Virus record (IMG/VR): IMGVR_UViG_3300030104_003613
Strand: one strand, 5' to 3'
Source: a virus
Length of the DNA stretch: 64,000 nucleotides
In this document: positions 16,866 to 50,046 of the stretch, piece by piece
Numbering within the stretch: position 1 is the first letter of the stretch
How the letters are laid out: each line of letters starts with the position of its first letter
Notes under the pieces: model-generated
Told to the model about the DNA's origin: nothing
The model's database searches: none
The model's input: the letters and a program-made list of their open reading frames with translations, nothing else
Translations under genes and position numbers: made by a program

Positions 16866-16938
16866 TAGCGGTGATGGGAGTCGAACCCACACTGTAAAGA
16901 TTTTAAGTCTTCTGTCTCTGCCATTGGACTACACCGCC
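16866..16938 (-). tRNA. trnL: tRNA-Leu(UAA), 73 nt, short variable loop, CCA not encoded
   Basis: GGCGGTG TA GTCC AATGGCAG AGAC A GAAGA CT-TAA-AA TCTTT ACAGT GTGGG TTCGACT CCCAT CACCGCT A folds as a cloverleaf; discriminator A73. Confidence 0.9.
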
Positions 16939-42322: not shown

Positions 42323-42360
42323 ATTATAGGTAAAAAAAAGGGACTCGTCAAGAGTCCCTT
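42323..42360 (-). terminator. Terminator overlapping a sigma70 promoter
   Basis: GGGACTC-TTGAC-GAGTCCC followed by T8; TTGACG(42351-46)-17nt-TATAAT(42328-23). Confidence 0.7.
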
Positions 42361-42380: not shown

Positions 42381-42548
42381 TCACTTTTTGTAAGTCTTAC
42401 CACGATAGCAAAATGTGCCATGGGTTTCCTTACTCTCTACACAACGAGTATCATACTCAACACCACGATAAGCGGTATGAGAGATTTGAGCGTTGTGAAG
42501 TGCAGATGCCTTTTCGATCTGCTTCTTGATTAGATTGAGTGTGTTCAT
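42381..42548 (-). CDS. DUF4278-family small protein (55 aa)
   Basis: Hand translation MNTLNLIKKQIEKASALHNAQISHTAYRGVEYDTRCVESKETHGTFCYRGKTYKK, with two YRG..Y motifs; AGGAG RBS. Confidence 0.8.
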   Translation of the reverse strand: MNTLNLIKKQIEKASALHNAQISHTAYRGVEYDTRCVESKETHGTFCYRGKTYKK

Positions 42549-42581
42549 GAGTTTACTCCTGAAGTAGTTGGCGTTTTTAGT

Positions 42582-42770
42582 GCCGTTCCTTCAGTCGTTT
42601 GCGTCCCAATACCAATCACATTGTGGTGCTGATTCCTTTACGGTATCAATTAACTCTACCTTGACTTGATTATCAAGGTATTCGCTTGCCTCAATCTTCA
42701 ACATAATAGCATCAGATTGTTGACAGGTCAGTGAGGTATACAGAAGAAATTCTGCCATGGGATGAACGGC
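42582..42770 (-). ncRNA. Glutamine-II (Downstream-peptide-like) aptamer 2, interrupted by a 149-nt P2 loop
   Basis: GCCGTTCA-TCCCA-[149 nt]-TGGGA-CGCAAACGACTGAA-GGAACGGC; same layout and junction length as aptamer 1. Confidence 0.7.
42591..42758 (-). CDS. 55-aa ORF nested inside aptamer 2
   Basis: MAEFLLYTSLTCQQSDAIMLKIEASEYLDNQVKVELIDTVKESAPQCDWYWDAND, with GGAG 12 nt upstream; the ORF-track extension to 42896 crosses the promoter. Confidence 0.7.
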   Translation of the reverse strand: MAEFLLYTSLTCQQSDAIMLKIEASEYLDNQVKVELIDTVKESAPQCDWYWDAND

Positions 42771-42772
42771 TC

Positions 42773-42816
42773 CGTTCCGCGACTTACTTGCGTCCCACCC
42801 TAGAGCGGGATGAACG
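42773..42816 (-). ncRNA. Glutamine-II (Downstream-peptide-like) aptamer 1
   Basis: CGTTCA-TCCCGCT-CTAG-GGTGGGA-CGCAAGTAAGTCGC-GGAACG, upstream of a DUF4278 gene, the usual context for this motif. Confidence 0.75.
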
Positions 42817-42824
42817 TATGGTCT

Positions 42825-42853
42825 ATTATAGACCTCATATATTATATAGTCAA
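42825..42853 (-). promoter_or_regulatory. Sigma70-type promoter for the riboswitch leader
   Basis: TTGACT-17nt-TATAAT; predicted start site 1-3 nt before aptamer 1. Confidence 0.8.
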
Positions 42854-49904: not shown

Positions 49905-50046
49905 AGGGTTATGTACGAGTACGGGGTAGTACTAGGTAAAATATTCCAACTCTACCCTCCAGAGTTGGTATGAAGGACTATTGTTTAGACACGCTGTTTA
50001 GTCCTGGTGAGGCGTGTGGGATGGTGAGGAAATCCTCACCCCGTCC
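49905..50046 (-). ncRNA. Structured psbA leader (PhotoRC-II-like)
   Basis: Stems GGTGAGGA/TCCTCACC and ACACGC/GCGTGT; loop AGGACTA complementary to downstream TAGTCCT; stems CCAACTCT/AGAGTTGG and AGTAC/GTACT. Confidence 0.7.

Follow-up and report, generated by a model that had tools for sequence, protein, structure and literature searches.

A protein-coding gene enclosed by a helix of a putative glutamine riboswitch leader in a T4-like marine cyanophage

Glutamine-I (glnA RNA; RF01739) and glutamine-II (Downstream-peptide; RF01704) riboswitches, their link to DUF4278/IF17 genes, their occurrence in cyanophages and their tandem arrangement have all been described previously (PMC2864571, PMC6212724, PMC9964418, PMC5066625). 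The leader of Synechocystis gifB (IF17) is an example of the glutamine-I class (PMC6212724), and for gifB-type leaders ON-switch behavior and a model of competing structures have been published (PMC6212724, PMC6698751). Tandem glutamine aptamers were reported by Weinberg 2010 (PMC2864571) and, according to the passage citing them in PMC5066625, by Ames and Breaker 2011; no expression platform had been identified for them (PMC5066625). Here, we analyzed a stretch of 64,000 nucleotides (nt; the window), IMG/VR virus record IMGVR_UViG_3300030104_003613, whose source is a T4-like marine cyanophage and whose minus strand carries a leader with two glutamine aptamer-like cores. One helix of this leader, P2b (42762-42758 with 42608-42604), encloses ORF-B, a genuine gene of 55 codons whose start and end consist of aptamer sequence. 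The same arrangement recurs in hundreds of related phages.

Group I and group II introns carry open reading frames (ORFs) in peripheral loops of their structured RNA, and the ends of these ORFs can enter core sequence. The cyanophage leader likewise has a protein gene around which the helices of a conserved structured RNA must close, and in the related contig L012 a homing-type endonuclease occupies the equivalent loop; unlike the introns, the leader is a putative ligand sensor in an mRNA leader, does not self-splice, and nothing is excised. In the trp and ermC leaders, translation of a short upstream ORF remodels the RNA controlling the next gene. Translation of the short upstream ORF of the window would likewise remodel a control RNA, but this ORF encodes a conserved family of 52-56 amino acid proteins rather than a sensor peptide, and the RNA to be remodeled is a putative metabolite aptamer.

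The elements of the leader are given below, with names covering the two pairing schemes weighed later, a tandem and an interlocked one. Loci with an ORF inside P2b are referred to as split, and relatives with a short hairpin in its place as unsplit. The sequence elements listed in an initial annotation of this DNA were all found on the minus strand exactly where it had placed them.

42816-42773, minus strand: aptamer copy 1
42770-42758, minus strand: 5′ half of copy 2, GCCGTTCATCCCA
42608-42582, minus strand: 3′ half of copy 2, TGGGACGCAAACGACTGAAGGAACGGC
42816-42812, minus strand: strand a, CGUUC, 5′ P1 strand of the outer core, with d (tandem) or k (interlocked) as its partner
42810-42793, minus strand: hairpin P2a of the first core, UCCCGCU-CUAG-GGUGGGA
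42792-42785, minus strand: junction CGCAAGUA, fitting the glnA consensus CGGAAGUA, with AGUA as the putative 5′ half of a loop-E motif
42784-42780, minus strand: P3 5′ strand AGUCG, complement of CGACU at 42597-42593; this stem is used in the Rfam glnA alignment of unsplit relatives
42777-42772, minus strand: strand d, GAACGG
between d and f, minus strand: linker AG
42769-42764, minus strand: strand f, CCGUUC
42777-42764, minus strand: d:f hairpin, GAACGG-AG-CCGUUC, either P1 of the inner core or a competitor of both tandem P1s
42773-42770, minus strand: Shine-Dalgarno (SD) sequence GGAG of the nested ORF, in the loop of the d:f hairpin
42762-42758, minus strand: P2b 5′ strand UCCCA, its last base being the A of the ORF-B AUG
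42758-42591, minus strand: nested ORF-B, 55 codons plus stop, phrog_504
42608-42604, minus strand: P2b 3′ strand UGGGA, covering the W codon of ORF-B and part of its D codon; partner of 42762-42758 across 149 nt
42603-42598, minus strand: inner-core junction CGCAAA, within the ORF-B codons D-A-N
42597-42593, minus strand: P3 3′ strand CGACU, its final U being the first base of the stop UGA (42593-42591)
42592-42589, minus strand: GAAG, proposed 3′ half of the loop-E motif, overlapping the stop codon and fitting the glnA consensus GAAGGAACG
42588-42583, minus strand: strand k, GAACGG, 3′ P1 strand, beyond the ORF-B stop
42564-42556, minus strand: CUUCAGGAG, upstream of the DUF4278-like ORF
42594-42559, minus strand: anti-SD hairpin, CUGAAG (42594-42589) with CUUCAG (42564-42559), enclosing k
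42560-42556, minus strand: SD sequence AGGAG of the DUF4278-like gene, overlapped by the anti-SD hairpin

The proposal of the initial annotation that an aptamer helix has a gene as its loop is supported by covariation across 150 nt, by unsplit relatives, by a deletion in silico and by coding signatures. A pattern scan of IMG/VR returned at least 120 related phage contigs with both cores in the same order and a short hairpin replacing the ORF. The P2b loop of these unsplit relatives measures 3-25 nt, their second P2 stem covaries (UCCC/GGGA, UCCGUC/GACGGA, UCCAGG/CUGGA, UCCUC/GAGGA), and many lie upstream of the same gene family as in the window. We compared an nhmmer profile of 60 unsplit relatives with the native window and with the same sequence lacking 42609-42757. 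The native window gave two partial matches 148 nt apart (profile positions 2-57, 43.5 bits; positions 60-86, 21.2 bits), whereas removal of the loop restored, as anticipated, a single full-length match (71.9 bits, E 7e-22); 200 shuffled sequences scored at most 2.8 bits.

Covariation of the closing strands (TCCCA/TGGGA in the DNA), also expected at the outset, is evident among 149 distinct split loci: U-A occurs 135 times and C-G 14 times at the first P2b pair, not one case being discordant, and a tree built from the ORF interior requires at least four changes of state. The three other P2b pairs vary only from C to U, and 100% of cells are paired, compared to 37-66% with the partner slid. The A-to-G change in the helix turns the protein tail WDAND into WGAND (D to G), so that RNA pairing is retained at the cost of an amino acid. 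When the 288-nt leader is folded without constraints, its minimum free energy (MFE) structure (-82.0 kcal/mol) has P2a, d:f, the complete P2b helix of five pairs and the anti-SD helix. We regard the anatomy of the leader as described here as very probably correct.

By its comparative signature, ORF-B is a genuine protein-coding gene. It was assigned to phrog_504 (E 1e-24), and 180 unique coding sequences (CDSs) of the family span 52-56 codons with all indels in frame and column entropies of 1.01, 0.48 and 1.38 at codon positions 1, 2 and 3, by which indels and entropies a non-coding reading was ruled out. Two cysteines and several further residues are invariant, an AlphaFold model features a confident two-helix hairpin (predicted local distance difference test, pLDDT, 82.5), and the layout is maintained at 55-78% protein identity. 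GGAG precedes the ORF in 177 of 185 split loci vs. 3 of 89 unsplit ones, and a ribosome site is therefore selected only where the ORF exists. The tail W-D-A-N-D-stop, which doubles as the 3′ half of the aptamer, is conserved together with the reading frame across these CDSs, in agreement with the initial annotation. Its five codons, TGG GAC GCA AAC GAC, are frozen, contrary to the ORF body, which prefers GAT (86%) and AAT (74%); apart from five GAC-to-GAT variants, nearly all changes in the tail are non-synonymous (D to G, N to H). Third positions held fixed against the codon preference of the body are the mark of an RNA constraint laid over the coding sequence.

As to RNA class, all glnA features are present in the leader: a P1 of CGUUC/GAACG (CGUUCA...GGAACG), a covarying P2, the junction ACG(G/C)AAGUA (ACGCA/AAGUA), a P3 in the corresponding position, and GAAG ahead of the 3′ P1 strand. 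Its position 5′ of a nitrogen-related (DUF4278/gifB-type, IF17-like) gene is typical for glnA RNA, a competing helix hides the ribosome site, and its unsplit relatives pass the RF01739 gathering score. The window differs from glutamine-I RNAs in that the native sequence stays under all Rfam thresholds, in that one helix has a 149-nt loop which is a protein gene with its last codons forming aptamer core, and, on the interlocked reading, in that P3 holds a second core rather than a small hairpin.

With Rfam at gathering threshold, there was no match at the leader in the native window, and permissive scans of the window recovered copy 1 only (glnA, 24.0 bits; Downstream-peptide, 24.8 bits). The split half was reported neither at gathering nor at permissive settings in the window and 15 homologous loci; covariance-model scans do miss it, as the initial annotation had suspected, the permissive matches being confined to copy 1 at 24-25 bits. 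A covariance model of 60 unsplit relatives with the interlocked structure likewise matched the window at 42721-42818 only (26.5 bits), and did not span the 149-nt insertion. On unsplit relatives, glnA exceeded its gathering score of 35 with a composite match (40.5, 38.6, 38.6 and 35.6 bits), while single cores, at 22-32 bits, remained below it. The passing composite takes a, P2a and CGCAAGUA from core 1, AGU...ACU as P3, and (G/A)AAG-GAACG from core 2.

Glutamine-II RNAs have the same core sequence and are found in marine picocyanobacteria upstream of DUF4278 genes (PMC6698751). The resemblance extends to the anti-SD hairpin of the window, which encloses a GGAACGG able to pair with CGUUC as a pseudoknot. 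The 3′ strand of this hairpin, however, is the SD sequence itself, and the RF01704 gathering score of 33 was reached neither by the window (24.8 bits) nor by the 15 homologous loci (23.8-29.3 bits); one of eight unsplit relatives passed, at 35.4 bits. The covarying anti-SD hairpin encloses GAACGG but is incompatible with P3/GAAG, and it may or may not coexist with the P1/pseudoknot pairing.

Two aptamer-like sequences separated by a linker of 2-3 nt (copy 1 3′ strand to copy 2 5′ strand) ahead of one gene are what is known from tandem glutamine aptamers, which comprise two or three such sequences; L012 has a third module. In contrast to the described tandems, covariation speaks for the two units of the window pairing with each other (d:f), and the anti-SD helix is an evident expression platform. 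The initial annotation had read the leader as two tandem copies, the second of them held together by long-range pairing that should be conserved among homologues. Two aptamer-like cores in this order are indeed there and P2b is kept, but the independence of the copies is not supported, since d:f covaries between them and glnA passes only as a composite, and the long-range P1 of copy 2 (f:k) is broken in 7 of 149 sequences. Only one change in the P1 strands is informative: wherever GGAACGG in d has become GCAACGG, CGUUCA in f has become CGUUGA as well (7 of the 149 aligned sequences, 11 unique loci, at least six changes on the tree). The d:f pair is thus G-C 141 times, C-G seven times and never half-changed; the swap keeps d:f and introduces a C.C mismatch into a:d (P1 of copy 1) and a G.G mismatch into f:k (P1 of copy 2).

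Strand a is invariant save for C to U in four unique homologues and, being so, does not discriminate between d and k as its partner. Strand k is essentially invariant as well, its trailing G differing in one locus, as is, nearly, the junction CGCAAGUA; P2a covaries richly, its first pair occurring as all four Watson-Crick types, and GAAG is replaced by AAAG in loci with the stop UAA. AGUCG and CGACU are fully complementary, and the only variants seen (GGUCG, CGAUU) are wobble-compatible. Furthermore, the two halves of the loop-E motif, AGUA and GAA, are divided one per "copy"; this motif is known from the glutamine-I structure (Ren et al. 2015, to the extent described in PMC6698751). Because d:f covaries, only the composite passes glnA, AGUCG and CGACU are complementary and the loop-E halves are split between the copies, we favor an interlocked ligand-binding fold over independent tandem copies and consider it probable. 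An additional outer stem between UGGGA (3′ strand of the copy 1 P2) and UCCCA (5′ strand of the copy 2 P2) was rejected, as it is not kept where P2a differs.

The anti-SD helix provides a candidate switch. Its variable pair, scored in 270 unique sequences, is G-C in 121, A-U in 95 and G.U in 54, with no A.C, over ~30 changes on the tree, and the identity of the ORF-B stop (UGA or UAA) covaries with the partner base. As its 5′ strand consists of the P3 3′ strand and GAAG, the aptamer fold and the anti-SD helix are mutually exclusive. Such a competition fits the published ON-switch and competing-structure model of gifB-type leaders.

In the explanation we propose, an outer core of glutamine-I type would be formed by P1 (42816-42812 with 42588-42584), P2a, the loop-E halves AGUA and GAA, and P3 (AGUCG/CGACU). 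Within P3 of this outer core would lie a circularly permuted inner core, composed of P2b, the CGCAAA junction and, serving as P1, the d:f hairpin. Glutamine would stabilize the interlocked fold and thereby withdraw CUGAAG from the anti-SD hairpin, allowing the IF17-like gene to be translated. The same glutamine-bound fold would bury the start region of the nested ORF, with GGAG in the d:f loop and the AUG at the foot of the P2b helix. In the absence of glutamine, or with ribosomes on the nested ORF, which ends on the P3/GAAG strand, both cores would be unfolded. Sensing and translation of the nested gene would then exclude one another on a single molecule, and the two proteins would probably respond oppositely. 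The anatomy makes a coupling of glutamine sensing to translation plausible. Reciprocal control of the two genes appears to be the most likely logic, albeit at well under even odds, and the explanation as a whole, including the interlocked fold and the direction of regulation, is offered tentatively, as having slightly less than an even chance of being right.

Several observations weigh against this explanation, some of which speak for two independent tandem aptamers instead. There, copy 1 would use a:d as its P1, copy 2 would fold by the long-range f:k pairing and P2b around the ORF, and d:f would be a ligand-free alternative disabling both. Each copy has full P1 strands, a P2 and an ACGCA junction, and glutamine aptamers only a few nt apart have precedents (PMC2864571; PMC5066625, where it cites Ames and Breaker 2011). 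By nearest-neighbor energies, the tandem fold (-76.2 kcal/mol) is 3 kcal/mol better than the interlocked one (-73.2), both lying above the ligand-free MFE (-82.0). Contig L028 lacks core 1 and retains only the split copy 2. Moreover, selection of GGAG within a hairpin loop of 3-4 nt means that a state with d:f open and GGAG exposed must exist, which agrees with a:d pairing as in the tandem fold, be it only a transient one. P1 and P3 of the interlocked fold are also almost invariant and show no compensatory change, the sequence-based case for a:k and AGUCG/CGACU consisting of one covariance-model alignment in relatives, complementarity and wobble-only variants. Nevertheless, the tandem arrangement seems unlikely to us, given that the G/C swap never affects d or f alone, preserving d:f at the expense of both tandem P1s (7 of 149), that AGUA and GAA fall into different copies, and that single copies reach 22-32 bits when only the composite passes the Rfam threshold.

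Two further objections concern regulation. Since d:f and P2b are also part of the ligand-free MFE fold, glutamine may leave access to the nested-ORF start unchanged; and termination on the anti-SD strand could activate the DUF4278-like gene by coupling, with a response in the same direction. The latter is a serious rival. ORF-B would mainly be a leader ORF, with ribosomes terminating at UGA (42593-42591) opening the anti-SD hairpin, glutamine setting initiation, and both proteins being made in parallel. It would account for the location of the stop codon in the covarying anti-SD helix, on the 5′ side, and for its covariation with the partner base, for the distance of 42 nt from the nested-ORF stop to the DUF4278 AUG, and for the selected GGAG upstream of the nested ORF. 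Yet unsplit relatives possess the same anti-SD helix and UGAAG/UAAAG with no ORF ending there; the helix hence predates the ORF or is independent of it, and coupling is not its primary role, leaving this alternative quite unlikely. Finally, the hairpin loop may be a permissive landing site for cassettes and the ORF a passenger whose position has no selected regulatory meaning. Related phages do have three different ORFs in their aptamer loops (phrog_504, phrog_6471 and an endonuclease VII/HNH-type gene in L012), and P2 loop lengths vary widely (e.g. L017). However, the closing pairs remain paired and covary after insertion, the AUG is at the helix base in nearly all of ~270 unique modules, the SD sequence is built into the neighboring hairpin loop, and the layout persists at the protein divergence noted above (55-78% identity), all of which makes a mere passenger highly improbable.

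Nesting is not restricted to ORF-B. In L023, L056, L077, L091, L098 and at least 87 unique loci among L120-L279, a 66-codon ORF, phrog_6471, is nested in P2a of the first core, and some phages thus carry two nested genes per leader. Its protein has an invariant PYGWH..C..C, and its start and stop codons pair and covary: UCUCAUG/CAUGAGA (UGA), UCUUAUG/CAUAAGA (UAA) and UCCUA/UAGGA (UAG), the mean closing stem being 5.97 vs. 4.43 +/- 0.14 for shuffled sequences. L012 (1208-1783) has a third aptamer module, the P2 loop of which is a gene for a 182-amino acid endonuclease of the VII/HNH type (phrog_1035, E 3e-18) whose last codons, ...EWDASRA-stop, run across UGGGACGCAAGUA. The arrangement suggests conserved aptamer DNA as a target of homing-type genes or as a place where they become established. 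A Pfam search of the phrog_504 and phrog_6471 nested proteins and the L012 endonuclease gave no match, a protein atlas search only unnamed clusters, and comparison of the phrog_504 and phrog_6471 profiles a probability of 16.5% over the Cys-to-Cys stretch, which does not show common descent.

Natural variants of the leader include L028 (949-1130), with its first core lost by recombination between two CGTTCATCCC repeats and a single split core left, and L051 (1330-1470), with a deletion from the 3′ P1 strand of the first core to the middle of the nested ORF. In L041, L064, L023 and others, the loop of the anti-SD hairpin harbors an extra conserved insert of ~45 nt (GGGAAAAACGGAUCC-hairpin-GAGAAGGUUCAAU...), located between the 3′ P1 strand and the DUF4278 SD sequence. 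In L295 (1351-1540), an unsplit double glutamine aptamer is preceded by a manA RNA (Rfam, 173 bits) at a distance of ~85 nt. Among representative prokaryote genomes, a 20-nt pattern of the leader occurred in seven records, none of them clearly a cyanobacterial chromosome, and the variant therefore looks phage-specific. These records (L400-L406) include a Verrucomicrobiales metagenome-assembled genome (MAG), a Euryarchaeota MAG, Alloalcanivorax marinus, Nonlabens xiamenensis and a 194-kb 'Synechococcus' MAG contig, and are probably cyanophage sequences that ended up in the bins or assemblies of other organisms.

Similarity of 72-81% identity links this part of the window to 431 records of Synechococcus and Prochlorococcus phages, the closest being S-RIM44; S-SM2, S-CAM4 and Syn1 are further cultured carriers. 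The part comprises a two-gene transcription unit delimited as follows.

42853-42825, minus strand: σ70-type promoter TTGACT-17-TATAAT, 11/12 consensus matches
42548-42381, minus strand: DUF4278-like (IF17-like) peptide gene, 55 codons, two YRG motifs, phrog_545 (E 2e-36)
42360-42338, minus strand: intrinsic terminator ending the two-gene unit

The promoter lies 7-8 nt upstream of the aptamer leader, placing the expected transcript start at ~42818, directly ahead of the first aptamer base, and homologous loci have identical spacing from promoter to CGTTCA. The downstream ORF, called DUF4278 in the initial annotation, is DUF4278-like by its phrog_545 assignment, but its Pfam match to DUF4278 (PF14105; 22.5 bits, E 1.5e-4) falls under the gathering cutoff of 25.3. 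Two assembled metatranscriptome contigs (420 and 408 nt, from two studies) of a ~90%-identical relative cover 42394-42798 and run from the first core through the nested ORF to the DUF4278 ORF; they give no transcript ends, strand or level, and may include DNA carry-over. Within 42323-42360 (minus strand), the terminator stem includes the -35 box TTGACG of the next promoter, itself an 11/12 match, an overlap that recalls the promoter-stem-loop cassettes of T4-type phages. Elsewhere in the window, Rfam at gathering threshold reported only a PhotoRC-II RNA (49933-50029, 56 bits) and a tRNA (16866-16938, 59.6 bits), both on the minus strand.

Neither an ORF inside a glutamine aptamer nor interlocked cores were described in the full-text literature searched, exclusive of Ames and Breaker 2011. 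Riboswitch aptamers are usually treated as compact non-coding modules, an assumption on which annotation pipelines rely. In this leader, a putative metabolite sensor is conserved with a whole gene within one helix, and the start, stop and last codons of that gene double as sensor sequence; the split aptamer exposes a blind spot of covariance-model scans. Interlocked cores, together with a visible expression platform, would offer an explanation for the long-puzzling tandem glutamine aptamers, and the leader represents a natural system in which to study the competition between translation and ligand-dependent RNA folding. It is possible, if doubtful, that the leader acts as a two-output toggle, the glutamine-bound fold exposing the ribosome site of the IF17-like gene and burying that of the nested gene, and the unbound or ribosome-occupied form doing the opposite, and that gene cassettes repeatedly use aptamer loops for docking. 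If the toggle is true, a single riboswitch would adjust the proportion of two phage proteins to the nitrogen status of the host. For phrog_504 and phrog_6471, both small and abundant cyanophage protein families, expression is probably tied to host glutamine, pointing to how cyanophages may read and manipulate the nitrogen status of their hosts in the ocean.

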